Assembly: GCA_030610855.1 (NCBI GenBank)
Contig: JAUWQY010000006.1
Span: 153 to 64,152 of the forward strand
Direction of reading: 5' to 3'
Origin: Dehalococcoidia bacterium
GTDB lineage: Bacteria; Chloroflexota; Dehalococcoidia; GIF9; AB-539-J10
DNA length: 64,000 bases
Shown: piece after piece, positions 397-59,317 of the stretch
Numbering within the stretch: position 1 is the first letter of the stretch
Layout: each line of letters begins with the position of its first letter
Program-made: the position numbers and the translations under genes
Notes under the pieces: model-generated
What the model was told of the DNA's origin: nothing
Database searches by the model: none
The model's input: the letters and a program-made list of their open reading frames with translations, nothing else

Positions 397-437
397 GAGA
401 TTCATCGCTCCGACAAGTCGGAGCTCAGCATGACAAG
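397..437 (-). repeat. Nested-hairpin dispersed repeat, subtype A: agattc-[ctccgacaagtcggag]-ctcagcatgacaag.
   Basis: It shares the flanks gagattc / ctcag(a/c)atgaca and an inner palindrome ccgacNNgtcgg with the copies at 2072, 3892 and 4278. Confidence 0.6.
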
Positions 438-1789: not shown

Positions 1790-2355
1790 TGCGGGGTCGG
1801 AGACAAGCCCCGACCCTACAGATGAGTGCGGTGCCCCGATTCGTTGCGGTGCAGGGAGCGGGACAACAGTGTAGCCCGAGGCGTTCATAACCCCCCTTAT
1901 AATCCCCCTTTATCTTAAGGGGGGATTAAGGAGAAAACTCCCATATTCCAAGTCCCCCTGTTCAGATAAAAGCGGCAGGGACATTGGGATCCCTCTCTTT
2001 AGGCAAGAGGGGCCAGGGGAGTTATGATTCCCCCCTCTTAGCGTAAGAGGGGGCTAGGGGGAGTTACGAATGAGATTCTTCGCCCCGACGGTCGGGACTC
2101 AGAATGACAGGGGTGGTAGTGCGAGGCTCTAGCCTCGTGAAGGGGAGAGGGCACGACCCTGAAGGGTCGCACTACAGTATTGGGTGCACCGGCGCAGCCC
2201 GAGTCATTTTGTAGTTGCTCCGATTTCATCGGAGCACGGTTGGGCGGCTATTCCCCCTGTCGTTGCGAGCCCCGACTTGTCGGGACGCAGCAATCTCGGT
2301 CGGGTAGGAGATTGCCGCGCTCTGCATTCGCTCCGCTCGCAATGACGGGCGGCAC
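1790..2355. repeat. Hairpin-dense non-coding region. It contains several GC-stem/AT-loop palindromes and at least four copies of the dispersed nested-hairpin repeats.
   Basis: Palindromes: gggtcggagacaagccccgaccc (1797-1821); taatccccc..ggggggatta (~1905-1935); ccctctctttaggcaagaggg (~1988-2008); cccctcttagcgtaagagggg (~2030-2052). Subtype A repeat at 2072-2110. cgaccctgaagggtcg at ~2166-2181. tgtagttgctccgatttcatcggagc at 2203-2236. Subtype B at 2260-2297 and a degenerate inverted B copy at 2310-2346. Confidence 0.6.
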
Positions 2356-2359
2356 CTGT

Positions 2360-3757
2360 CTAGCTCTCTCTGAGCCGGCCTTTTGCCTCCCTGGGACCAA
2401 GACCTTTGGCAGCCTGGACCACCAGAGCCAGACTCACGAGGAAATCGTCATGTCCCTCTTGAGGGTCAACATAGAAGTTAATCGTCTGGTTGGGGCGATA
2501 TTGCGCCCTCGCTTTTTCCAACTCGAACATGGTTTCCCTATACTCGCCGGAGCCGTCCTGCCTGTAGAGTTTAAGCCTACCGGAGTTTATGAAGGACAAC
2601 AGCTCAAAGCCCATGTCCGATTTGCTCTTCGAGGTAATGACAAATGGGATAACCCGGCTTCCCAGTTCCTGCCTGAGAAAGCTGGCGACAGGCTGGCCGA
2701 TGCCCGTAGCGTCGACTACTATCCTGTGGCAGTTCCAGACATCGCGCAGAATGCCCGTCATCTGGCCATAGAGCTGACTATGGGGCGTTCCCGTCCAGCG
2801 GTATTGTTCCACGACCTTCAGCACCGGCTGTGAAGGACTGGCAGCGGCGACCTCAGCGATGGTGATTACCGTCGAGTCGTGCCCCCACCCCCGGCGGGTG
2901 CCAGTAGCCTCCTCTGCCGTCAGCTCCGGCTCGTGTTCGCCTGCCAAATCCACGCCGGCAACGTATGTCCTCTTTCCCCCGGCGGCCTGTCCTGAGCCTG
3001 CCGAAGGATGCGACTGCCTCTGGTGTTCTCCAAGCACGAGGGCTATTTGCTGGCGTGACAGGAAACCTCCACCGCGTGTGATAGGCAATAAGGCATATTG
3101 CGTCCGGAACAGGGGATGCTCTTCACCCAATCTTTGCCGCTCAGCCTCCACAAACCTCACATAATCAGGATTGTAGCGCCCTACCTCCTGCCAGTCATAT
3201 CTGAAGTGGCGCTTTATGCCATCCTTCCCTTCCAGTTCCAGATTGGCCTGCTTCACCTCTTCCAGCAAGCTGCTACTGTCCCACGTAGTGCCGTAAAGAA
3301 TCGTGGTCACGTTGGTGGCGGAACCCATGGGGCGGAATTCCCTGCTGTACTTCTCTTTGCTGACATCTTGCGCTTCATCGATCTCAAGGATTATGTCGGC
3401 GGTATGTCCCACCACCGAAGAGGAGCCATCGGCCGAGAGAAAGATGGCTCTGGCGTTGCCGAGCTGTAGAATATAGCCCATCTGGAGACGATAGATGCCG
3501 TCAAAACCAAAATCAACGAGCCTCTCTTTCAGCCTTTCTATAGATATAACGGTCTGAGGCCTGAAGGTCGGGGAGCATTTTACGAGACTGCCTCCCCCGG
3601 CCATATAGAGCGTTAACAGCAGGACTTCCAGATGCGCCGAAAGCTCATTCTTGCCTCCCTGGCGGGCAATCTCCGCGGAAAAGGTCAGTCCCATTCCCTT
3701 CTGGATGGAGTCCATAGCCGCACGGGCGACTTGCAGCTGGTAAGGTCGTAGTTTCAT
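2360..3757 (-). CDS. Phage terminase large subunit (N-terminal ATPase plus C-terminal RNaseH-like nuclease). It is solitary: no other phage structural genes lie in the window.
   Basis: Walker-A-like ARQGGKNELSA; Walker B ILEIDEAQDV; C-terminal nuclease block with AGVDLAGEHE and VVDATGIGQP. Length 465 aa. Flanked on both sides by hairpin repeats. Confidence 0.75.
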   Translation of the reverse strand: MKLRPYQLQVARAAMDSIQKGMGLTFSAEIARQGGKNELSAHLEVLLLTLYMAGGGSLVKCSPTFRPQTVISIERLKERLVDFGFDGIYRLQMGYILQLGNARAIFLSADGSSSVVGHTADIILEIDEAQDVSKEKYSREFRPMGSATNVTTILYGTTWDSSSLLEEVKQANLELEGKDGIKRHFRYDWQEVGRYNPDYVRFVEAERQRLGEEHPLFRTQYALLPITRGGGFLSRQQIALVLGEHQRQSHPSAGSGQAAGGKRTYVAGVDLAGEHEPELTAEEATGTRRGWGHDSTVITIAEVAAASPSQPVLKVVEQYRWTGTPHSQLYGQMTGILRDVWNCHRIVVDATGIGQPVASFLRQELGSRVIPFVITSKSKSDMGFELLSFINSGRLKLYRQDGSGEYRETMFELEKARAQYRPNQTINFYVDPQEGHDDFLVSLALVVQAAKGLGPREAKGRLRES

Positions 3758-3762
3758 AGCTG
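3731..3762 (-). repeat. Copy 1 of a 32-bp direct repeat spanning the terminase start codon (ttgcagctggtaaggtcgtagtttcatagctg).
   Basis: 31 of 33 positions are identical to the copy at 3849-3880. This copy encodes MKLRPYQLQ, the genuine terminase start. Confidence 0.7.
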
Positions 3763-3848
3763 GTTATCGGCGATCAGCCTCAAAATCGTAAAGGAAGGGC
3801 TTCCTTCACGCCTCGAACGGTGGGTTATTGGCCATCAGGTCCAATACT

Positions 3849-3880
3849 TGCAGTTGGTCAGGTCGTAGTTTCATAGCTCT
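3849..3880 (-). repeat. Copy 2 of the 32-bp direct repeat: a duplicated terminase 5' end with a stronger SD. It opens a 22-codon ORF, MKLRPDQLQVLDLMANNPPFEA*.
   Basis: The minus strand reads aggaggagtacgagagctATGaaactacgacctgaccaactgcaag. It is in frame with the terminase ATG 117 nt downstream, but separated from it by TGA and TAA stops. Confidence 0.65.
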
Positions 3881-3891
3881 CGTACTCCTCC

Positions 3892-3932
3892 TTGTCATTC
3901 TGAGCTCCGACAAGTCGGAGCGAAGAATCTCA
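3892..3932 (+). repeat. Nested-hairpin dispersed repeat, subtype A, forward orientation (tgtcattctgag-ctccgacaagtcggag-cgaagaatctc).
   Basis: An outer stem attct/agaat surrounds the inner hairpin ccgacaagtcgg. It is the inverted partner of the copy at 4278-4326. Confidence 0.7.
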
Positions 3933-3969
3933 CCCGCTCGGAGCAAATGCCACGAAGGGCGAAGATGTC

Positions 3970-4260
3970 CTACTCCTCATACCATCTCTCACCTAAGTCT
4001 TTCCATTCTGGATTTGCCGCCTCGATTAAGGCAATCTTCTTCTTTCGCAGCCATCCCTTGATTTGCTTTTCCCTCTGGATCGCAGCACGTACATCACTAG
4101 TAATCTCATAATAGACCAGCCTGGCGATATTGTATTTTCGAGTAAATCCCTCAATTAGCTTATTTCTGTGTTCATATACACGCCGGACTAGATCATCGGT
4201 TACACCTGTGTAAAGCGTTCTAGAGTTATTGGTCATGATATAAACGTAGTACTGCTTCAT
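3970..4260 (-). CDS. GIY-YIG nuclease superfamily small protein (COG2827/YhbQ-like).
   Basis: YVYIMTNNSRTLYTGVTDDLVRRVYEH..IEGFTRKYNIARLVYYE is the classic GIY-YIG core (GIY...YIG, Arg, Glu). Length 96 aa. Bracketed by inverted copies of the subtype-A repeat. Confidence 0.85.
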   Translation of the reverse strand: MKQYYVYIMTNNSRTLYTGVTDDLVRRVYEHRNKLIEGFTRKYNIARLVYYEITSDVRAAIQREKQIKGWLRKKKIALIEAANPEWKDLGERWYEE

Positions 4261-4277
4261 TACCTTAGCTTTTTCTT

Positions 4278-4326
4278 AGATTCTTCCGTCGCCCCGATTC
4301 ATCGGGGCTCCCTCAGAATGACAAAG
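4278..4326 (-). repeat. Nested-hairpin dispersed repeat, subtype A, reverse orientation (agattcttc-cgtcgccccgattcatcggggc-tccctcagaatgacaaag).
   Basis: Its reverse complement is ctttgtcattctgaggga-gccccgatgaatcggggc-gacggaagaatct, matching the 3892-3932 copy in inverted orientation. Confidence 0.7.
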
Positions 4327-4429
4327 AAGTAAAGGGCTCAGAATCGCACCTTATCTTGCCACAAAATAGAACACCTCTAATAGGACCTGTGTTCTTTTCA
4401 TGGCTGGTCGTGCCCTTGTGGATAGGAGC

Positions 4430-4912
4430 CTATTTACTGGCTATCTTCATGCCCACCCCGACCCCCAGGGGCAGGGCAACCTCGGTCAGGACCTTCTGGA
4501 CGGCTTCTTTCAGGGATTTCTTCTGCTCTCTGGTAATCTGGTATCGTGTTCTCACCAGCCGGGCTATGATATTGGCTGCCTCGAAGTGCTGGTCGATCCG
4601 CTCCGGCTGTTCTTCCACGAGCTGCCTGAGCTTCAGCCTGAGAAGAGCAATCTCCTCGTCAATTCCCTCGACGCAAGAGGCCTCCTCCAGCTCAACCCGT
4701 TCCGCCTCATCCAGAGCCCGGCTATAGAAACCCCGTGGACTACCTTTCCGCTTGCTTCTCCCTTGTGTTGTCATAACGGTTCTTGGGTCGGCACGAATTT
4801 GCAGGGTTTCTGACATGTGATCTATGGGCAGCCGGCAGGGTGGCGGGACTTCTCTCATACCGGTTTTTGCCGTATTGCACCCGCGCCTTGACCAGACCGT
4901 AGACAAGGACAT
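4430..4912 (-). CDS. Hypothetical protein. It may be a frameshifted gene, or two overlapping small genes, spanning ~4430-4990.
   Basis: The 3' two-thirds (4430-~4740) is protein-like: FYSRALDEAERVELEEASCVEGIDEEIALLRLKLRQLVEEQ...KEAVQKVLTEVALPLG. Upstream of ~4740 a different frame (the ORF 4740-5174 frame, up to ~4990) looks more coding-like: NPFVYLEHLCYDGVVKLLAAALQKQDYELAAHVLVYGLVKARVQYGKN. Confidence 0.35.
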   Translation of the reverse strand: MSLSTVWSRRGCNTAKTGMREVPPPCRLPIDHMSETLQIRADPRTVMTTQGRSKRKGSPRGFYSRALDEAERVELEEASCVEGIDEEIALLRLKLRQLVEEQPERIDQHFEAANIIARLVRTRYQITREQKKSLKEAVQKVLTEVALPLGVGVGMKIASK

Positions 4913-10055: not shown

Positions 10056-10226
10056 CCCCTATCATTATACCACCGCGGACTACCCCACCTAAATCACAGC
10101 CTCGACCCTAATTCCACAGGAAGTCCCACTACGTTAATGGAAAGGGGCCAACAACCCAGTTTGTGGTGCGAGTTCTCAGGGTTACGTCCCATCCCCTGGC
10201 TTCCCCACCAGAGAGGAAAACCTACG

Positions 10227-11126
10227 TTATCTGCTGATAAACGTGTTTATAATCCCTTCAAAAGGTGATAGGCTCCCATGAAGTTGGTCGATTTCCTCTG
10301 GACTCAATACTGTGAGGGCGTTAGCTATCTCGGCAAACGCTCCACTAGAAAGAAGCTCCCCTGCTTTATTCTGGTCTTCTGATGTGGTTACGACGAGGAA
10401 GAGGAGAGGATGGCCCATAGTATGGTATCCGTGCAGCAGTTTGGCTAGTGCACTCTCTAGAGTGCCCTTGTGTTGAACTTCGAAGACATGACTTACTCCC
10501 TGTACCCGTTGAGAGCTTTTCCACACGACATCATAAATGTAGAAGCCTTTGCGGTACTCTCCTTTAGCATATCTTCCTAGAATCTTACCGATTTCCTTAA
10601 TTTTTCTCTGAATCTCTTCATGTGTGTAGGTTTGCTCGTCTCTCACTACCGTTGGTTTTCCAACTCCCTTATACCCCAGCTCCGCTGCCAGCTCTCTGTA
10701 AGAAAGAGTCTCCGCCTTGTTCCAGAGTGCCTCGTTGAGTTCACCTCTTCGCCCCTTTGTTACTAGTAAACACAGCTTTGAAATGCCAATCTTAATCAAA
10801 CGGTCTTTTGGGGGCGCTATGGGAGTGGTCGACAATCGGTAAATATTCATGAGGCGTGTCGCCCAAGAGTAGGAGTTGTTGAAGGGTAAGCTGTATTGCA
10901 CATATTCCATGAAGTTCCCGTAACCGAGAACCCGCCAATAACGCCCTTCAGAGCATTCGGTTAGTAGTCTTCCGATTTGTAGAAAATCGTGCATCACTTC
11001 CGCAACAAGTCGGATTGTCTCTTCACGGTTCCGACGCGCTTGCTCACGGATGTCTGCTTGCGGAACTATCTGCATAGACTGAAGCCTACAGGTATACCTT
11101 GTATTGCTCAATGTAAAGTATACCAC
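10227..11126 (-). CDS. Hypothetical protein with a C-terminal PD-(D/E)xK nuclease-fold motif, in a low-GC islet. Probable start is the internal Met at 11078.
   Basis: GFYIYDVVW...VFEVQHKG supplies Asp and E-x-K on adjacent predicted strands, followed by LLFLVVTTSED. The N-terminal half is helical and HTH-like. Local GC is ~47%, against ~57% in the neighbours. It is a single gene inserted between the radical SAM gene and an ABC substrate-binding-protein gene. Confidence 0.5.
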   Translation of the reverse strand: MVYFTLSNTRYTCRLQSMQIVPQADIREQARRNREETIRLVAEVMHDFLQIGRLLTECSEGRYWRVLGYGNFMEYVQYSLPFNNSYSWATRLMNIYRLSTTPIAPPKDRLIKIGISKLCLLVTKGRRGELNEALWNKAETLSYRELAAELGYKGVGKPTVVRDEQTYTHEEIQRKIKEIGKILGRYAKGEYRKGFYIYDVVWKSSQRVQGVSHVFEVQHKGTLESALAKLLHGYHTMGHPLLFLVVTTSEDQNKAGELLSSGAFAEIANALTVLSPEEIDQLHGSLSPFEGIINTFISR

Positions 11127-11288
11127 AAACGACCCATTCTGGCTCTCGCAACCTTGTCTGGGTTCCGTGAGGCGGGCTGTTTAGTATCTTCCCCTAGGCC
11201 TATCACGCCCAATAATCACGATAACGTTCGTAGGGCAGCATTTTATGTGCCTCCATCTCCGGCGGGGAATAAATCCCCGCCCCCCAAG

Positions 11289-12887
11289 CTAGGGCTGTTC
11301 CACGTAAACCTGGCTCAGGTTGGGAATACCCAGTAGACCAAGCTCATAGCCTGTAACATAGGGTCTGACCAGGATGTAGTTTGCGCCGTGCCACAGAGGC
11401 AGGCAAGGAGCCTCATCAACCACCATTTGCTCAGCCTGCCGGTACATAGTCAGGCGGGCGGTATTATCCTGTTCTATGGCCGCCTGGTAAAGCAAAGCAT
11501 CCAAGTCGGGGTTGCTGTATTCAAAGGCATTGTTCTCGCTTCCGGTAAGAAAGAGGATATCCAGGAAATTGTGCGGGTCCGGGTAATCGGCTATCCAGCC
11601 CAGCACAAACATCTCATCCTTCTCTTGCTTCAGGTTGTAGACAAAATTCTCTGGTTCCAGTTGCCTGACCGAGACTTCCACGCCGAGGTTTTGCTGCCAT
11701 TCCTCGATAATCGCGCCCAGGTAGTCGGGAATGTAATTGCCATAGCCGGCAACAGTCAAGGTGATAGGAGGCAAGTTCGAGGCTTCACCATACCGTGAGG
11801 CGGCGATGAGTTCTTTCGCCTTTTCCACATCGTAGTCCAGTCCCTCGAGACCCTCGTCATAGCCAGGCATACCCGGTGGCAAAATCCCCCTGGCCTCATT
11901 CGCCATGTCACTCAATACCAGTTTGGCGATGCGCTCTCTATCAACAGCATGAGAAAAGGCCCGCCGAACATTAACGTCGTCGAAAGGAGGTTCGGCAGTA
12001 TTAAAGCCAACATAATAAAGGCTGAGCTCAGACGTTACGGCTAACTCCGCGTAGAACGGGCTGGTCTCGTCACGCACCCGGTGAATATAACCCCCGTATA
12101 CCGGAACGACGTCGATGTACCCCAGTTCATACATGGGCATAGGCGGACCGGCAAGATAATAGACGACGTGCTCCACTTCGGCCGGATCGCCGTAGTAGGT
12201 TTCGTTACGCTCCAGAATCAACCACTCGCCGGCCTGCCATTCCTTTAGCTTAAACGGCCCCGTTCCGTCTGGTTCGCACCACCAGTCTGTCCGGACCTCC
12301 GCATTGGCTCTGTCAACAACAAAAGCAGTAGGATAAGCCAGCTTGCTCAGGAAATAAGCCCTGGGAGCATCAATGGTGACACGAAGAGTGTAATCATCGA
12401 TTACTTCGACCCCGGAGATCTCTCCCGTTTTTCCCGCCAGCATATCGCTGGCGCCAATGATATCTCCCAGATAGGTAGCCGCCGTGCCAGAGCCAGTATC
12501 CGGGTGGCAGGCTCGCTCCCAGGAGTATTTGAAGTCGGCGGCTTTCACTTCTCTGCCGCTATGAAATTTCACTCCCTGGCGCAGGTAGAAGGTATACGTT
12601 CTGCCGTCAGGGCTTTTCTCCCAGCTCTCAGCGATATCGGGTACTGTCCTCAGCTCATGGTCCAGACGAACCAGGCCGGAGAAGATATGCACGACATAGG
12701 TATAGGAAGAGAAGTCGGCAGCAATCGCCGGGTCGAGCGTTATGGGGCCCGCGTCCCAGAGACGAAGGACGCTGTCTCCGCTGCCCAAAGGAGGACAGCC
12801 CGCCAACGAAAGCAGAAAGAAGGCGAGAACAAGTGAGAGCAATACTATGTGCCGATTTCTTCTTCTACAGAAACAACTTGACTTCAT
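11289..12887 (-). CDS. ABC transporter substrate-binding lipoprotein, family 5 (peptide/nickel/oligopeptide).
   Basis: Lipobox LLSLAGC; length 532 aa; SBP_bac_5-like sequence throughout. Confidence 0.85.
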   Translation of the reverse strand: MKSSCFCRRRNRHIVLLSLVLAFFLLSLAGCPPLGSGDSVLRLWDAGPITLDPAIAADFSSYTYVVHIFSGLVRLDHELRTVPDIAESWEKSPDGRTYTFYLRQGVKFHSGREVKAADFKYSWERACHPDTGSGTAATYLGDIIGASDMLAGKTGEISGVEVIDDYTLRVTIDAPRAYFLSKLAYPTAFVVDRANAEVRTDWWCEPDGTGPFKLKEWQAGEWLILERNETYYGDPAEVEHVVYYLAGPPMPMYELGYIDVVPVYGGYIHRVRDETSPFYAELAVTSELSLYYVGFNTAEPPFDDVNVRRAFSHAVDRERIAKLVLSDMANEARGILPPGMPGYDEGLEGLDYDVEKAKELIAASRYGEASNLPPITLTVAGYGNYIPDYLGAIIEEWQQNLGVEVSVRQLEPENFVYNLKQEKDEMFVLGWIADYPDPHNFLDILFLTGSENNAFEYSNPDLDALLYQAAIEQDNTARLTMYRQAEQMVVDEAPCLPLWHGANYILVRPYVTGYELGLLGIPNLSQVYVEQP

Positions 12888-16067: not shown

Positions 16068-17447
16068 CTATTTCGCCGACGACCTTCGCCAGGTCCGCTT
16101 TTTCAGAACATACCATACGCCGAGTCCTGTAGCCAGCGCTCCTAACACAGCAATCACGCCGGGATGCAGCCATGCCCGCCAACCCGGAACTGCCGGGCCT
16201 GACAGCGTTGCCCGCCAGTTAGCATCCAGAGCGTCCATGTCAAAATCATAAACATCGCTCAAAGCATCATCATAGGTGCTGCCCTGCTTCAGAATACTCA
16301 ACAAATCGAGCATCCTGGTCTTGCCATGATTATCAAGGAGATACTCCACAAGGCTGTAGCTCTGAGCATAAGAAAGGTAAGCTTGATCAGGCTCGGCAGA
16401 GAAAGGGCTGCACAGGCTGCGCACAGAAATGAGTTCATCATCCGAGATAGCCTCTTCCAGGCGAGAGCGGAAGTGAGGCTCAAGCTCACCTTCATTGTGC
16501 ATGGCCAGCCCTTCATCAAGCCAGGTAGGAAGCCGCCCGTAGGGGCCGAAAGTTGCCTGGTGAACAACAAGATGTGTTAATTCGTGAATCAGGGCTCTCT
16601 TGCCCCAATCAAGTCTCTCGGGCGAAATCCCGATAGCGATTATGCTGAACTCGGTATAGGCTACGCCGCCAGTCCACTCTTGAGGAAAGATCATAGCTCC
16701 CCGCAAGTCCTCGGTGGAGGCATAGATATACATCCTTATCGGCCTTTCTGGATAAGTGCCGATATCCTCAGTCAATCTAACGAGGCCTTCCTCGCAGGTA
16801 TCCATCAGTTCTCGAGCGAAGGAATCATCGCCTTCGTACCAGAAAATGGTCAGGGCGTCGCCTTGATAGGTCTGCCATTCTGCCGGAAGGCCGCTACTGA
16901 TCAAGCTCTGCCACAGATAGCGAGCGTCATTGAAACGCATTACCTCGGGAGAGGTCTCAAATCTGTTCCCGTCAGCGTCCTCAATCATCCACCAATAGGT
17001 GACCTCGGCACCGGGGGGTAGGCTTGCGTTCCGCATATCCCATACCCATTCAGCCTCTATCCTGGTTGCTGGCGAAAAACTAGCCCAACCCTCACTGACA
17101 ACCTCTGCATACTTCATCCTGTCAACCCGGTAGCAAAGACGGACATCAATGATATCGCTGCTGCTCTCAGCTTCAATGGTGAACACAGCCTGGTCAGGGA
17201 AATCCACTGCCACACCGCTCGCTATGATGGCAATTGCGTTCTCGGTTTGCTGAGCCGTCACCCTGAGCGGGAGCGAAGGGTCTCTCGATTCTTCGTGGAG
17301 CTCGCCCTGAGCGAGATTCCTCGGTCGCACTGCTCCCTCAGAATGACACGCAATATCGCTATTTGAGATGCTACTCTGCCCCCCAACGAACGAAGACGCT
17401 GACAGCAGCAGCAACGTCAAGACTACTAAGACGATGCGCCCGATCAT
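16068..17447 (-). CDS. Putative secreted or membrane-anchored zinc metallopeptidase (HExxH), with an N-terminal signal and a C-terminal TM.
   Basis: Signal peptide MIGRIVLVVLTLLLLSASSFVGG. Zincin motif IHELTHLVVHQ with a downstream GLAMHNE. C-terminal TM IAVLGALATGLGVWYVL plus KKRTWRR. It contains a decayed dispersed-repeat copy coding ACHSEGAV. Confidence 0.55.
   Translation of the reverse strand: MIGRIVLVVLTLLLLSASSFVGGQSSISNSDIACHSEGAVRPRNLAQGELHEESRDPSLPLRVTAQQTENAIAIIASGVAVDFPDQAVFTIEAESSSDIIDVRLCYRVDRMKYAEVVSEGWASFSPATRIEAEWVWDMRNASLPPGAEVTYWWMIEDADGNRFETSPEVMRFNDARYLWQSLISSGLPAEWQTYQGDALTIFWYEGDDSFARELMDTCEEGLVRLTEDIGTYPERPIRMYIYASTEDLRGAMIFPQEWTGGVAYTEFSIIAIGISPERLDWGKRALIHELTHLVVHQATFGPYGRLPTWLDEGLAMHNEGELEPHFRSRLEEAISDDELISVRSLCSPFSAEPDQAYLSYAQSYSLVEYLLDNHGKTRMLDLLSILKQGSTYDDALSDVYDFDMDALDANWRATLSGPAVPGWRAWLHPGVIAVLGALATGLGVWYVLKKRTWRRSSAK
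17313..17349 (-). repeat. Degenerate subtype-A dispersed repeat embedded in frame within the metallopeptidase-like CDS.
   Basis: gagattcc...gctccctcagaatgacacg retains both flank motifs, but the inner hairpin has decayed. The minus strand translates to ACHSEGAVRPRNLA. Confidence 0.5.
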
Positions 17448-50261: not shown

Positions 50262-50370
50262 TGTTGCCCTTCACATCAATTTTAACATCGGAGCACCTGA
50301 AGGTAAAGCGGATATATTCTTGACTAGTTGCACTGTCTTTGCACTTGTGGCATAATAAGCCAGACCTTTA

Positions 50371-50392
50371 AACCAGTCCAGTGAGGCTGGTA
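50371..50392 (+). promoter_or_regulatory. PyrR-binding RNA loop (pyr attenuator binding motif) in the pyrR leader.
   Basis: ccAGUCCAGUGAGGCUgg matches the ARUCCNGNGAGGYU consensus and is closed by a ccag/cugg stem. It lies ~60 nt upstream of pyrR. Confidence 0.55.
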
Positions 50393-50423
50393 AGGGGAGA
50401 TATGCTAAAGCAACCCGCAATAG

Positions 50424-51035
<612 letters not shown>

Positions 51036-51048
51036 AGGAGAGGCAGTC

Positions 51049-52452
51049 ATGAAGCTGACAAATAGGGATCTTGTGACCATAGACGATTTATCCAACGACG
51101 AGATGGAAGCTCTCTTCTGCCTGGCAGACGAGATGGCCGACTCCTTAGACGCGCAGTACGGACTATGCCAGGGTAAGATCATGGCCAGCCTGTTTTTTGA
51201 GCCCAGCACCAGAACGAGGCTGTCCTTTGAAGCTGCGATGCTCCGGCTTGGCGGTCATGTCATAAGCACGGTTGACGTCGGTGCCACTTCTCTGGCCAAA
51301 GGCGAAAGCATTGCCGATATGGCCAGAGTGGTCGGGAGCTATGCCGACATAATTGTCATCAGGCACCCCTGGGAGGGAGCAGCCAGGGTCGTCGCCGACT
51401 ACGCCGGCGTTCCCGTGATAAATGCCGGCGATGGGGGCCATGAACATCCGACCCAGACCTTGTGCGATCTGTATACCATCAGAAAGCAGAGGCGGACCCT
51501 TAAGGGGCTCAGAATTGCCCTTTGGGGAGACCTGAAACACGGGCGAACAATACATTCCCTGATCTATGCCCTGGCCAGGTTCGGTGCCTCTGTCCTCTTC
51601 TGTCCTGGCCCCGGGCTTGGGCTGCCGGAGCATGTTCTGAGAAGGCTGAGCACGGAATACAAAGGGGAGTTAAGAAGACGTGCAAATCTCAACCAGGAAC
51701 CTGAGAGGAAGCTCTTCCCTATCGATGCCGTATACATAACTCCGAGCAGCCCGCATCAACTCGCCATGCTGCCTGACATAAGCGTCCGAGTGGAGTTGAA
51801 GGCAGGGGTTGATGCGCTTTATGTCACCAGGCTCCAAAAGGAAAGACAGGCACCCACGGTTGAGCAACAGGAGTTGAGGAAGAGGTACCCGGTGGTAGAT
51901 AAAGAACTCCTCAAGGGAAAGGAGTTTGAGAAAACACTGGTTATGCATCCGCTGCCCCGTGTTGACGAGTTGGCTTGCGAGGTGGATTCCGACCCCAGGA
52001 GCATGTACTTCAAACAGGCGGCTTACGGGATCCCCGTCAGAATGGCGCTCATCGCCATCTTGCTGGGCACCAGGGAAGTCGTGATTTCCAGAGAGTATCA
52101 TTCCTTCGCTCAGAAGATGGAATACCCCGTCTATAAGCGGGATTCCGGATTGAAGTGCTCTAATAGAAGCTGTGTCTCAAACCAGGGAACAGAAGCAAGG
52201 TACATAAAGCCTGAGTTCAAAATAGTGAGCCTCGAGCCGTTAACGTTGCGCTGCATCTATTGTGAGCACGAGCTTCATCCCGAATATGTTGCCAGCTCAG
52301 ATTGGCATCAGGGGAAGCTGGAGAACAAGAAATATCACAACGCTAGTAGCCATTGGGCACGGAGGATTAAGCCGGGGAATTTGATTATCTTCGCTTCGGA
52401 AGATGAAGCTCAGGCTCAGCAGTTTAAGCCCAGCAGCTATGTCACACGATGA
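51049..52452 (+). CDS. pyrB: Aspartate carbamoyltransferase with a fused C-terminal PyrI-like zinc regulatory domain (PyrB-PyrI fusion).
   Basis: Catalytic STRTR, HPTQ and HPLPR motifs sit in the first ~310 aa. The C-terminal 150 aa has a Cys4 zinc domain (CSNRSC...CIYCEHE) like the PyrI regulatory chain. Confidence 0.85.
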   Translation: MKLTNRDLVTIDDLSNDEMEALFCLADEMADSLDAQYGLCQGKIMASLFFEPSTRTRLSFEAAMLRLGGHVISTVDVGATSLAKGESIADMARVVGSYADIIVIRHPWEGAARVVADYAGVPVINAGDGGHEHPTQTLCDLYTIRKQRRTLKGLRIALWGDLKHGRTIHSLIYALARFGASVLFCPGPGLGLPEHVLRRLSTEYKGELRRRANLNQEPERKLFPIDAVYITPSSPHQLAMLPDISVRVELKAGVDALYVTRLQKERQAPTVEQQELRKRYPVVDKELLKGKEFEKTLVMHPLPRVDELACEVDSDPRSMYFKQAAYGIPVRMALIAILLGTREVVISREYHSFAQKMEYPVYKRDSGLKCSNRSCVSNQGTEARYIKPEFKIVSLEPLTLRCIYCEHELHPEYVASSDWHQGKLENKKYHNASSHWARRIKPGNLIIFASEDEAQAQQFKPSSYVTR

Positions 52453-53828
52453 ATAGGGAAGCTATGTTCCTGCTTGTCTGCGGCGGACGCATAATCGATC
52501 CCAGCCAGGGCATAGATCGAGTTGGGGACGTGCTCATTGTTGAGGGCAACATTGTGCAGGCAGGAAGCCCCATCATTCAGAGACCTTCGTTTTCTGTCAT
52601 GCTGAGCAAGGCGCAGCAACTGGACGCCACGGGACTGGTTGTTTGCCCCGGCTTTGTCGACCTCCACTGCCACCTCCGGGAGCCAGGTTTCGAGGATAAG
52701 GAAACAATCGCCACAGGGACAAAAGCAGCCGCCACAGGTGGTTTCACCACTGTCTGTTGCATGGCAAACACCGAGCCTCCTCTCGATACTGCTGCTGCCG
52801 TAGATCGGATGAAGCAAAGAATAGATAAGGACAGCCTGATTGCCGTTCTTCCCGTAGGCTGTGTCACCAAAGGTCGAAAAGGTAAGGAGTTGACCGTAAT
52901 GGCGGGACTGGCTGAAGCTGGCGTGATTGCTTTCAGCGATGATGGCGACCCCGTGGCAAGCTCGCAGATTATGCGTCACGCCATGAGTTACAGTCGTAGC
53001 CTGGGCTTGCCGGTAATCGACCACTGTGAAGACAGAGCATTAAGCGGCGGTGGAATCATAAACGAAGGACGGATATCTACTGAAACAGGTTTGAAAGGGA
53101 TTCCCGCAGCCGCCGAGGAGGTTATGGTAGCCCGCGATCTAATTCTGGCCAAGATGACTGAAGCCAGAGTTCACATCGCCCATGTGAGCACCAAAGGCTC
53201 CGTGGAGCTTATTCGTCGTGCCAAGGAAGAAGGGACTTCGGTAACCGCCGAGGTGACTCCCCACCACCTGACCCTAACCGAAGAGAGTATTATCGACGAG
53301 GCCCGAAACAAATCCTTCGATACCAATGCCAAGGTGAATCCGCCCCTGCGCACCGAAGCTGATATCGAAGCACTGATTAAGGGACTGGGCGACGGGGTGA
53401 TCGATGCTATCGCCACTGACCATGCGCCACATACCGTGGCGGACAAGAACTGCGATTTGAAGTCAGCTGCTTTCGGCATCAGCGGCTTCGAAACCGCTTT
53501 TGGCTGCCTCATGGGCCTGGTGCACCAGGGAGAGATAAGCCTTGTTCTACTGCTCTCTAAACTAACTTGCGAGCCGGCCAAAATCATCGGCAGAGACGGT
53601 GAACTGGGCACCTTGAAAGCAGGAGCTCCCGCTAATGTCACCATACTTGACCCCGATCGGGAATGGGTAGTGAATAGCCGCGATTTCGCCTCCAAAGGCA
53701 AGAACACCCCTTACGATGGCGTTAAGCTCAGGGGTAAGGTAATGGCTACTATAGCAGACGGCAAGATAGTCTATGTAGATGGCTCGTTGCCGTCGTCTGC
53801 CATCTCCCTCGAAAGAAAGAGGATATAG
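52449..53828 (+). CDS. pyrC: Dihydroorotase (multifunctional/type I-like).
   Basis: Metal-binding DLHCHLREPG, plus HVSTKGS and DHAPH motifs. Confidence 0.9.
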   Translation: MNREAMFLLVCGGRIIDPSQGIDRVGDVLIVEGNIVQAGSPIIQRPSFSVMLSKAQQLDATGLVVCPGFVDLHCHLREPGFEDKETIATGTKAAATGGFTTVCCMANTEPPLDTAAAVDRMKQRIDKDSLIAVLPVGCVTKGRKGKELTVMAGLAEAGVIAFSDDGDPVASSQIMRHAMSYSRSLGLPVIDHCEDRALSGGGIINEGRISTETGLKGIPAAAEEVMVARDLILAKMTEARVHIAHVSTKGSVELIRRAKEEGTSVTAEVTPHHLTLTEESIIDEARNKSFDTNAKVNPPLRTEADIEALIKGLGDGVIDAIATDHAPHTVADKNCDLKSAAFGISGFETAFGCLMGLVHQGEISLVLLLSKLTCEPAKIIGRDGELGTLKAGAPANVTILDPDREWVVNSRDFASKGKNTPYDGVKLRGKVMATIADGKIVYVDGSLPSSAISLERKRI

Positions 53829-58301: not shown

Positions 58302-59267
58302 TTGAACATGGAACAAGCCCTGTGCACCATAACTTCTAATGTGGAGGTCATGCCCGACGCATACCTCATGCGGATTGAGGCGCCGAATATGGCTCGTTCA
58401 GTTCAGCCGGGGCAATTTGTCACACTGCGTTGTGGAGACTTCACGCTCCGTCGTCCCTTCAGCGTGCATCAGTCACGATTCGATCGGGATTCAGGTGAAG
58501 GCGAGATTGCCATTCTGTTTAAGTTAACAGGCAAGGGCACGCTCTGGCTATCACAGCGGCAAACAGGCGAGACGATAGACATTCTTGGCCCCTTAGGTAA
58601 AGGATTTAGCATTCCCCCGATAAGATCGGGGGAATCACAGCGCTTCCTGCTGGTGGCCGGGGGAATTGGCATTGCCCCGCTCGTTTTCTTGATGCAGCAT
58701 ATCCTCAGGCGATGCTCAGGACATGCTTCGTCACACCGCCAGATAACCTTGATTCATGGCGCGAGCACTGCCGCTCAACTCTATCCGTTCGGCCACGCTG
58801 AGGACAGGTCTTCTTTGTCAACCGCTTCTCCACTGTCATTGACCACTTCTCCCTCGTCATTGACCGCTTCTCCCTCGTCATTGCGAGCGAAGCGAAGCAA
58901 ACTCCATTCCTTGCCGAAAGGAATTCAGTTTGTTCCCGTCACGGAAGATGGTAGCACCGATAAGAAGGGCCTGGTCACGGATCTTCTACCTGACTTCCTA
59001 AACCGGGCTGATCACGTGTATGCCTGTGGCCCGGTAGATATGTACAAGGCGATGGCAGAGACGTCATTGCCGGTCCTGAACACAGCCGCAGGGCGAAGCA
59101 ATTCCGGGTTGAGCAAATGCCAGGTTTCGCTTGAGGTGAGGATGGGATGCGGTTTTGGCGCTTGCTATGGCTGCACCGTGAATACGAGGAAGGGCCTAAA
59201 AAGGGTATGCCGCGATGGCCCGGTATTTGAGTTAGGGGATATCATATGGCAGGAGGTAAGGATATGA
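58302..59267 (+). CDS. pyrK: Dihydroorotate dehydrogenase electron-transfer subunit PyrK-like (FAD/NAD-binding plus 2Fe-2S). It carries an in-frame repeat-derived insertion.
   Basis: RRPFSV FAD motif, GGIGIAPL NAD motif, and C-terminal CGFGACYGC cluster. It is ~35 aa longer than typical because of the insertion LSTASPLSLTTSPSSLTASPSSLRAKRSKLHS. No pyrD is adjacent. Confidence 0.75.
   Translation: MNMEQALCTITSNVEVMPDAYLMRIEAPNMARSVQPGQFVTLRCGDFTLRRPFSVHQSRFDRDSGEGEIAILFKLTGKGTLWLSQRQTGETIDILGPLGKGFSIPPIRSGESQRFLLVAGGIGIAPLVFLMQHILRRCSGHASSHRQITLIHGASTAAQLYPFGHAEDRSSLSTASPLSLTTSPSSLTASPSSLRAKRSKLHSLPKGIQFVPVTEDGSTDKKGLVTDLLPDFLNRADHVYACGPVDMYKAMAETSLPVLNTAAGRSNSGLSKCQVSLEVRMGCGFGACYGCTVNTRKGLKRVCRDGPVFELGDIIWQEVRI
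58819..58904 (+). repeat. Tandem ~21-bp repeat (3 units), ending in a subtype-B dispersed repeat fragment, inserted in frame within pyrK.
   Basis: The three units are caaccgcttctccactgtcattgac, cacttctccctcgtcattgac and cgcttctccctcgtcattgcgagcgaagcgaagcaaactc. Confidence 0.7.
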
Positions 59268-59278
59268 CCACGCACCAC

Positions 59279-59317
59279 GTCATTGCGAGTCCCGATCTGT
59301 CGGGACGAAGCAATCTC
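59279..59317 (+). repeat. Nested-hairpin dispersed repeat, subtype B (gtcattgcgag-tcccgatctgtcggga-cgaagcaatctc).
   Basis: A full copy lies between pyrK and the yjbQ-like gene. Outer stem attgc/gcaat; inner hairpin cccgaNNNNtcggg. Confidence 0.7.

Follow-up and report, generated by a model that had tools for sequence, protein, structure and literature searches.

A GIY-YIG nuclease gene between inverted hairpin repeats in a Dehalococcoidia bacterium, a probable divergent member of the Ssn system

The Ssn system, in which a small GIY-YIG nuclease acts on a family of hairpin repeats (hereinafter designated SRMs), was described by Chenal et al. 2025 (Nat Commun 16:2388; PMC11893778), and our literature search found no follow-up papers to that study. 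Here we examine a 64,000-nt stretch of a Dehalococcoidia bacterium genome (contig JAUWQY010000006.1; hereinafter designated the window), in which a gene for a 96-aa GIY-YIG protein is bracketed by inverted copies of a nested hairpin repeat, and compare this locus with the described system. SsnA of Neisseria meningitidis, a 94-aa single-domain GIY-YIG protein of CDD family cd10448, binds the hairpin repeat NTS (CGTCATTCCCGCGMAVGCGGGAATCYRG) solely as single-stranded DNA (ssDNA), and is inactive on duplex DNA, RNA and the reverse strand (PMC11893778). It cuts on the 5′ side of the repeat at a distance of a few nucleotides; cutting is governed by the trinucleotide that precedes the palindrome (GTC), the C directly 3′ of the palindrome is the key base for binding, and mutation of Y6, Y17 or E64 abolishes cutting (PMC11893778). 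The genes of Ssn homologs are flanked by SRMs on at least one side in 71% of cases and on both sides in 42%, NTS copies rarely lie inside genes (2%), and Rickettsia and Wolbachia are among the SRM-richest genomes (PMC11893778). In N. meningitidis transformation, SsnA reduces the integration of NTS-bearing DNA about five-fold, and the authors remark on the insertion-sequence-like layout of NTS-ssnA-NTS and, as a hypothesis, on its analogy with REP/RAYT; the activity demonstrated for the family is site-specific ssDNA cutting, not transposition (PMC11893778).

The locus in the window is very likely a member of the Ssn system, consisting of an Ssn-family GIY-YIG nuclease (gene hereinafter designated ssn) and its cognate SRMs. 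The original prediction for this stretch, made from the letters alone, regarded the pairing of hairpin repeats with a GIY-YIG enzyme as unusual, but that pairing had already been published as Ssn/SRM (PMC11893778). What is already known is the Ssn system; what is new is a divergent Chloroflexota member, together with the gain and loss of its cassette and repeats. The Ssn/SRM system is thereby extended to uncultured Chloroflexota and many other phyla.

The nuclease and its relation to SsnA

The ssn gene (3970-4260, - strand) encodes a single-domain protein whose sole Pfam domain is PF01541 (GIY-YIG, E = 6.7e-16). In BLASTP it shares 51% identity over 88 residues (E = 3e-30) with the 94-aa SsnA ortholog of N. 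gonorrhoeae (L142:1498-1782), and its residues Y7, Y17 and E64 align with Y6, Y17 and E64 of SsnA. Among 27 homologs, Y7 and E64 are invariant and Y17 is kept in at least 90%. The identity to the gonococcal ortholog lies just below the strict 60% criterion of the Ssn study; the looser criterion used there, E < 1e-10 over more than 75% of the length, does include the window protein. The gonococcal gene is itself surrounded by 10 canonical NTS copies. Its source record, NZ_CP119140.1, is a 2.17-Mb N. gonorrhoeae sequence that is filed as a plasmid and looks like a chromosome.

Close homologs of the 96-aa protein bear the names of Chloroflexota/Dehalococcoidia metagenome-assembled genomes, its sole PDB relative by sequence is 1ZG2, a UPF0213 protein, and a scan of IMG/VR found no relatives of the nuclease. 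The gene is under strong purifying selection (dN/dS 0.05-0.16) and synonymous sites are near saturation between genomic contexts (dS from 0.4 to saturation), so the similarity of ssn across phyla reflects constraint and not necessarily recent transfer.

Repeat copies and their conserved anatomy

Both SRMs next to ssn have their TGTC ends pointing outward. The upstream copy (4279-4323, -, conserved flanks included) has the same polarity as the gene and ends 18 nt before its ATG, and the downstream copy (3893-3931, +, likewise with flanks) is inverted relative to ssn and starts about 40 nt past its stop codon. The outer 16 nt of the two copies form an inverted repeat with 94% complementarity, which, together with the exact repeat copies and the Pfam match, confirms the predicted bracketing of a 96-aa GIY-YIG gene by inverted copies. 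The pattern CATTCTGAG-N-GAAGAATC is present in three exact copies, at 3896-3929 (+), 4279-4320 (-) and 2074-2106 (-), and has no match in 100 shuffles of the window; a scan that allows any compensated stem finds six perfect copies in the window versus a mean of 0.06 in 50 shuffles. Each copy is predicted to fold into a nested DNA hairpin of about -9.8 kcal/mol (z -2 to -3.3).

Beyond the flanking pair, the window holds about 10 more copies or relics, and the subtype-B and degenerate copies lie where the original prediction had placed them. A solo subtype-A copy (2074-2107, -) is found within a repeat-rich stretch of ~530 bp (1818-2348). Subtype B, with the form CATTGCGAG...GCAATC, is found at 2310-2344 (-) and 59281-59315 (+). 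The former belongs to a subtype-B doublet with outward TGTC ends (2261-2345, composed of 2261-2295, +, and 2310-2345, -), and the latter to an intergenic solo SRM (59280-59315, +). Degenerate copies occur at 399-432 (-), preceded by a 5′ half-site at 448-457 (the two spanning 399-457, -), at 2261-2295 (+), as one half of the doublet, and at 58878-58905 (+), where a subtype-B copy of uncertain status lies in a PyrK-like coding sequence. A further doublet is located in a peptidase-MA open reading frame (17258-17346), with an ACCCT-stem copy at 17258-17282 (+) and an ATTCT-stem copy at 17287-17346 (-), both of which belong to the six perfect copies. The segment 2202-2347, which holds the subtype-B doublet, has a 92% identical copy elsewhere in L082 (15705-15850). 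Unrelated perfect palindromes (CCCCCTCTTACGCTAAGAGGGGG, CCCCTCTTGCCTAAAGAGAGGG and CCCCCCTTAAGATAAAGGGGG) accumulate at 1818-2060 in the same intergenic stretch.

The consensus of 232-276 copies reads T-G-T-C / ATTCT / G-A / variable inner hairpin / G-A / AGAAT / C-T-C. When 234 copies were anchored on the stem arms alone, the 5′ flank from -4 to -1 was T in 91%, G in 99%, T in 99% and C in 96%, and the 3′ flank from +1 to +3 was C in 97%, T in 86% and C in 75%. The stem varies across copies and loci (ATTCT, ATCCT, ATGCT, ACCCT, ATTCC and ATTGC) and the other arm compensates: 248 of 276 copies have complementary bases at every one of the four variable positions, compared with about 120 (maximum 136) in permutations, and all four Watson-Crick pair types occur at stem position 2. 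The GA/GA tandem is retained in 231 of 232 copies, and the shortest inner segments are xCGNAGx′ mini-hairpins, e.g. GCGAAGC. Tandem G·A pairs and GNA loops stabilise the hairpin of the TGTC strand only, and the repeat thus has strand polarity. The hairpin energy of the inner segment set against shuffles says little, since nearest-neighbour parameters give no credit to G·A pairs or GNA loops.

Ahead of the full repeat, a 5′ half-site with a ~13-nt C/T-rich spacer recurs in the form TGTCATTCTGAG-CCCTTCGCTTCTT-TGTCATTCTGAG... This arrangement is seen in the window at 4345-4279 (-) and 457-399 (-), in L002, L004, L005, L007, L017 and L019, and, at the genomic position corresponding to that of ssn in the window (site A, see below), also in L152, L156, L157, L166 and L169. 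Two or three such units sometimes follow one another in tandem, recurring every ~25 nt. Within the 3′ half of the repeat, GAAGCGAAG is the complement of the spacer CTTCGCTTC, and the half-site arrays may be a footprint of cutting and repair or may provide an alternative pairing.

The biochemistry of SsnA suggests how such a locus could work. A single-stranded TGTC-ATTCT-GA-(hairpin)-GA-AGAAT-CTC strand would fold into a hairpin, which the enzyme would bind by sequence and structure, with the C 3′ of the stem needed for binding. The same strand would then be cut a few nucleotides 5′ of GTC, which would be needed for cutting, and duplex DNA, RNA and the complementary strand would be ignored. Since the flanking copies point outward, cutting is predicted immediately beyond either end of the gene, once per strand. 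Homology and the conservation of the positions mapped in SsnA make ssDNA cutting the most likely activity of the window protein, and the conserved tandem G·A mismatch and GNA loops, which favour the TGTC-strand hairpin, lend indirect support to action on single strands only. We infer that such cuts could serve to spread repeats or to restrict incoming ssDNA.

Association of gene and repeat across genomes

We compared the locus with 80 fetched genomic loci encoding homologs at 61-86% identity, from Chloroflexota, Ignavibacteria, Binatia, Nitrospirota, Nitrospinota, Zixibacteria, Planctomycetota, Desulfobacterota, Bacteroidota and other phyla, and counted associations over 81 loci. Closed genomes with a homolog include OY970271.1, NZ_OZ244997.1 and OZ252246.1. 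Up to 200 bp from the gene there are 4.7 repeats per kb versus 0.13 per kb beyond 500 bp, a 36-fold difference in density. With a generalised motif, a copy is found within 250 bp in 78 of 81 loci, and 63 of the 81 genes are bracketed on both sides within 150 bp. The TGTC ends point outward (+-) in 42 of these 63, versus 25% expected (p = 4e-12). Relative to the gene, copies within 50 bp upstream number 20 (+) versus 3 (-), and those within 50 bp downstream 27 (-) versus 4 (+). Farther from the gene, adjacent copies usually take alternate orientations. The gene-repeat link is real and coincidence is excluded, which bears out the functional link proposed in the original prediction; orthologs do have flanking repeats, the absence of which would have pointed to a generic element according to that prediction. 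In two loci from Nitrospina/Nitrospinales (L047 and L070), dense arrays of 20-35 repeat copies lie within ~6 kb around ssn, and two repeat variants alternate there in opposite orientation.

The opposing possibility, also raised in the original prediction, is that a generic REP-like or terminator-like repeat has a GIY-YIG neighbour by coincidence. The copies are indeed mostly intergenic and hairpin-forming, and unrelated palindromes gather in the same intergenic stretch (1818-2060). The enrichment beside homologous genes in many phyla, the strong orientation bias and the homology to SsnA nonetheless rule this explanation out, leaving it a negligible chance of being correct, and a direct protein-repeat interaction has been shown experimentally for the Ssn family (PMC11893778). 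Nor do the copies resemble terminators or a described RNA family: the hairpins lack a following T-run and a terminator scan was negative at the repeats, a gathering-threshold Rfam scan of the whole window returned the PyrR site at 50361-50473 only and no family matching the repeat, and a permissive Rfam scan of 3600-4600 gave chance-level matches only.

The repeat can also be tied to the published family by its sequence. A core GTCATTC...GAATC is common to the window repeat and NTS, and the positions critical for SsnA, GTC 5′ and C 3′ of the stem, are kept at 96-99% in the repeat copies. Several results weigh against placing the locus in the Ssn system. No NCBIfam model matches the nuclease, its AlphaFold2 model is moderate (pLDDT 69.6), and Foldseek against PDB returns weak matches only (1ZG2 and the N-terminal domain of UvrC). 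The SRM search sequence of Chenal et al., HGTCWYN(0-2)YYVSBRHN(0-5)WNVSBRGN(0-2)RNCYNB, has no match in the window and matches in one of the 80 loci, and in the gonococcal locus the flanking copies closest to the gene are oriented the other way (-+), so that the outward-facing layout does not hold throughout the family. The search sequence, which does recover canonical NTS, is a working tool and not a definition of the family; since it misses the window copies and 79 of the 80 loci, we class the window repeat as a divergent SRM subtype with an ATTCT stem, a tandem G·A mismatch and a GNA-type loop. Because the search motif misses this subtype, published repeat counts probably understate the spread of the system.

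The window locus and Ssn/NTS share a single-domain GIY-YIG protein of ~95 aa, a repeat-flanked gene with copies both dispersed and clustered, and oriented hairpins with GTC 5′ and C 3′ of the stem. Compared with NTS, the window repeat has a 5-bp ATTCT/AGAAT stem and the conserved tandem G·A mismatch, and its inner hairpin is variable, in many cases a mini-hairpin with a GNA loop. The flanking copies closest to the gene face outward (+-) in the window and inward (-+) in the gonococcal locus, and the host here belongs to an uncultured Chloroflexota/Dehalococcoidia lineage. At least one in-frame doublet lies within a coding sequence here, whereas 2% of NTS copies are inside genes (PMC11893778), and empty and filled sites are documented for the lineage of the window (see below). 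Judged by the conserved tandem G·A mismatch and the loops of the mini-hairpins, substrate specificity may be distinct here, which could interest developers of Ssn enzymes as ssDNA-cutting tools.

A Planktothrix agardhii plasmid, NZ_LR882964.1 (L143, 1501-1785), encodes a 77% identical ssn homolog that is flanked by the same repeat subtype and has as neighbours a type IIL MmeI-family restriction-modification gene on one side and DISARM drmA on the other, a defence-island setting. This setting favours the explanation that the system has been domesticated by its hosts, as in Neisseria, to restrict ssDNA or modulate recombination. Ssn would cut incoming or exposed strands at SRMs, e.g. during transformation, conjugation or ssDNA-phage infection, the repeats would persist as marks of genomic regions, and the cassette polymorphism described below would mean that an accessory gene is gained, lost and transferred in the ordinary way. 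The strong purifying selection and the retention of one site across relatives with 84-100% identical proteins are consistent with such a role, as is the ~five-fold effect of SsnA on NTS-bearing DNA in N. meningitidis (PMC11893778). Domestication leaves the multiplication of SRMs, their in-frame insertion into genes and their clustering at ssn unexplained, however, and we consider it rather unlikely as an account of the locus.

Gain and loss of the cassette, mobility and genomic setting

In the window, ssn lies within a 672-bp block (3758-4429, -) that is inserted, relative to outgroups, between the gene for a 160-aa protein (4430-4912, -) and a terminase-large-subunit-like Terminase_6C gene (2360-3757, -). 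As outgroups we used 46 IMG/VR loci whose terminase-like gene is 53-71% identical; they contain no ssn and almost no SRM, and in ~25 of 35 outgroup cases the stop codon of the 160-aa gene and the start codon of the terminase-like gene share an ATGA. The sequence of the empty junction is ...AGTAAATGAAACTACGACC... Because the two genes overlap by ATGA in outgroups, where ssn is lacking, the cassette (composed of leader, SRM, ssn and SRM) has been inserted into a conserved operon, parting the overlapping genes. Homology across three genomic contexts begins at TGTCATTCTGAG and ends at CTCAGAATGACA, the outer ends of the SRMs. The leader (4324-4429, -), which extends from the stop of the 160-aa gene to the upstream SRM and contains the 5′ half-site GATTCTGAG at 4337-4345, includes a stretch resembling the host promoter ahead of the cassette at an alternative site (site B, below). 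A 117-bp secondary duplication (3762-3878) adjoins the cassette and carries a second copy of the 33 nt with which the terminase-like gene begins (3729-3761 versus 3846-3878, 94% identical, with a hairpin between the copies). The 98-100% clade has this duplication and the 93% clade does not; L091, L092, L094 and L095 lack it. A search for tRNA genes found none in the window, and there is thus no tRNA-linked integration.

The cassette is found at two sites in relatives. Site A is the position in the window, and the cassette is held there in relatives with 84-100% identical Ssn proteins. Site B is found beyond the opposite end of the 160-aa gene, with the host promoter before it and the next start codon after it, and is occupied in L002, L006 and L008, site-B-only relatives that share the PHO4-P160-(TERM)-TUB operon, where P160 is the 160-aa gene, TERM the terminase-like gene and TUB a tubulin-like gene. 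The window and L092 are clean empty alleles of site B. A metagenome set of 28 loci includes 27 close relatives (TERM ~79-95% identical), 21 of which carry ssn at neither site, five at site A and one, L155 (Ga0315294_10152075), at both; the remaining locus, L150 (68%), is an outgroup whose junction shows the overlap. The two ssn copies in L155 (972-1259 and 2056-2343) lie on either side of the 160-aa gene and are 81% identical at the nucleotide level, and the site-B copy is 97.6% identical to that of L002. Metagenome loci without ssn have 70-400 bp at site A; in the 20 loci where this stretch was read (70-190 bp), it is made up of subtype-B SRMs together with 5′ half-sites in tandem. By host markers, both site states occur in both host clades; a neighbour-joining tree of 288 nt of ssn is poorly resolved. 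The site pattern may result from repeated relocation, or from old paralogs with differential loss.

Solo repeats and doublets are likewise gained and lost among relatives, one doublet inside a coding sequence. The repeat-rich stretch at 1818-2348 is absent in the 93% clade; L092 and L094 lack it. The doublet at 17258-17346 lies in frame in the peptidase-MA reading frame (16068-17447, -), where it separates the signal peptide from the mature domain; most orthologs (412-413 aa) are without the whole linker, and two have the linker without SRMs. The copy at 58878 in the PyrK-like gene has a mutated right arm, and its KRSKL also occurs in orthologs without the neighbouring insert. Of the two copies that the original prediction placed in frame within coding sequences, the peptidase-MA doublet therefore stands, being absent from orthologs, and the other is ambiguous; the presence/absence comparison that it proposed finds both the cassette and solo repeats polymorphic. 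Filled and empty sites, for the cassette as for the in-gene doublet, are the type of evidence that bears on the question of mobility left open by the Ssn study (PMC11893778).

These observations lead to a further reading, which adds to Ssn membership and does not replace it, namely that SRM-ssn-SRM is an autonomous mobile element. Cuts by Ssn outside the repeats would start relocation, host repair or recombination would complete it, and solo copies and doublets would be non-autonomous passengers, as REPINs are for RAYT. The same hypothesis was raised by Chenal et al. (PMC11893778), and the predicted insertion-sequence-like architecture, on which they also remark, is borne out here. Mobility is favoured by the SRM outer ends that bound the cassette across contexts, by the splitting of an overlapping gene pair, by the four states in relatives (none, site A, site B and both) and by the occurrence of both site states in both host clades. 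SRMs also pile up at the same sites with the alternating orientation noted above (+- 59, -+ 49, direct 24), and doublets without a gene have the outward polarity of the cassette's flanking copies.

Other features are difficult to reconcile with an autonomous element. Inserted DNA runs 45-100 bp past the left SRM and, at site B, also ~75 bp past the right one, and the site-A leader resembles host DNA of site B; since the insert exceeds the SRM-bounded unit in this way, the ends of the cassette are not precise. The enzyme is a hydrolytic GIY-YIG nuclease without known strand-transfer activity, and we know of no joining chemistry for GIY-YIG nucleases. With the flanking sites on opposite strands, each single strand would offer one cuttable site. 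Identity between the L155 copies is no more than 81%, and the site pattern could stem from old paralogs that were differentially lost; there is no second ssn copy within 3 kb in the 80 genome loci or elsewhere in the 64-kb window, and dS values from 0.4 to saturation indicate long residence at the site. The spacers of the doublets share no sequence with the cassette interior, and an origin of doublets as miniature inverted-repeat transposable elements (MITEs) by internal deletion was rejected on this ground. On balance we regard an autonomous mobile element as possible, with the evidence leaning against it. The original prediction of a minimal mobile element with MITE-like derivatives is thus upheld as to gain and loss and called into question by the imprecise ends and opposite strands, and stays hypothetical.

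A more specific proposal is that leader-SRM-ssn-SRM is a self-mobilising element of a new mechanistic class, in which ssDNA nicks outside the hairpins are followed by host repair that copies or moves the segment. We think this rather unlikely. Were it so, solo copies, doublets and tandem half-site arrays would be by-products of the self-mobilising cassette, and the 'domesticated' Neisseria system would descend from cross-phylum transposable elements that insert even in frame. A role of Ssn itself in the movement of cassette or repeats is hypothetical.

Comparison with other repeat-associated systems reveals partial likenesses. As in REP/REPIN-RAYT, a single gene lies between inverted hairpin repeats and has long been at one locus, solo copies are scattered over the genome along with inverted doublets, and the copies within clusters take alternating orientations, like BIMEs. 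REPs are lineage-specific, whereas the conserved parts of this repeat are shared across phyla; moreover, the sole open reading frame of the cassette encodes a hydrolytic GIY-YIG protein and not an HUH/Y1 transposase, and the conserved 5′ tag is GTC here and GTAG in REP. In IS200/IS605 elements both end hairpins lie on the same strand, and a covalent intermediate of the HUH tyrosine rejoins the DNA; here the enzyme is of the GIY-YIG type and the flanking copies are on opposite strands in 42 of the 63 bracketed loci. Both Ssn and the TnpA of IS200/IS605 recognise imperfect ssDNA hairpins and cut at a short distance from them (PMC11893778). The IS200/IS605 logic invoked in the original prediction thus holds for a nuclease that recognises ssDNA hairpins, but the opposite-strand copies and the extended insert are unlike single-strand excision. 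The window protein has the same catalytic fold as GIY-YIG homing endonucleases such as I-TevI. Homing enzymes have separate DNA-binding domains, cut duplex DNA and reside in introns or as free-standing phage genes; by contrast, the window protein has 96 aa without a second domain, and its gene lies between two chromosomal operon genes. Rickettsia palindromic elements, which can insert in frame into protein-coding genes, resemble the SRMs in being palindromic and in this capability.

The setting of the cassette has features of its own. A tubulin/CetZ-like gene (609-1787, +) is the neighbour of the terminase-like gene and its 160-aa partner. The PHO4-P160-TERM-TUB block is conserved and chromosomal in many Dehalococcoidia, its contigs are filed as viral in IMG/VR, and it may be a domesticated phage-derived module. 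Elsewhere in the window, a 1.2-kb strain-specific segment (10088-11307) stands in place of ~110 bp present in four relatives. We considered whether it is SRM-related and found it unrelated: its edges are without SRMs or hairpin repeats and it has no Pfam match, nor has the 299-aa open reading frame within it (10227-11126, -).

The pyrimidine biosynthesis genes are preceded by a PyrR binding site (RF00515, 50361-50473, +; 54.1 bits versus a cut-off of 54). Within the dihydroorotase-like coding sequence (52449-53828), two 5′ half-sites, ATCATTCAGAG...TGTCATGCTGAG, occur at 52573-52606 (+) without a right arm, and may be a decayed in-frame repeat. The PyrK-like protein (58302-59267, +) has a low-complexity insert of ~28 aa (SPLSLTT/SPSSLTA) just before the degenerate subtype-B copy, and in a related PyrK-like ortholog, P0125, a clear in-frame repeat, CHSEGAKRPKNL, is found elsewhere along the protein.

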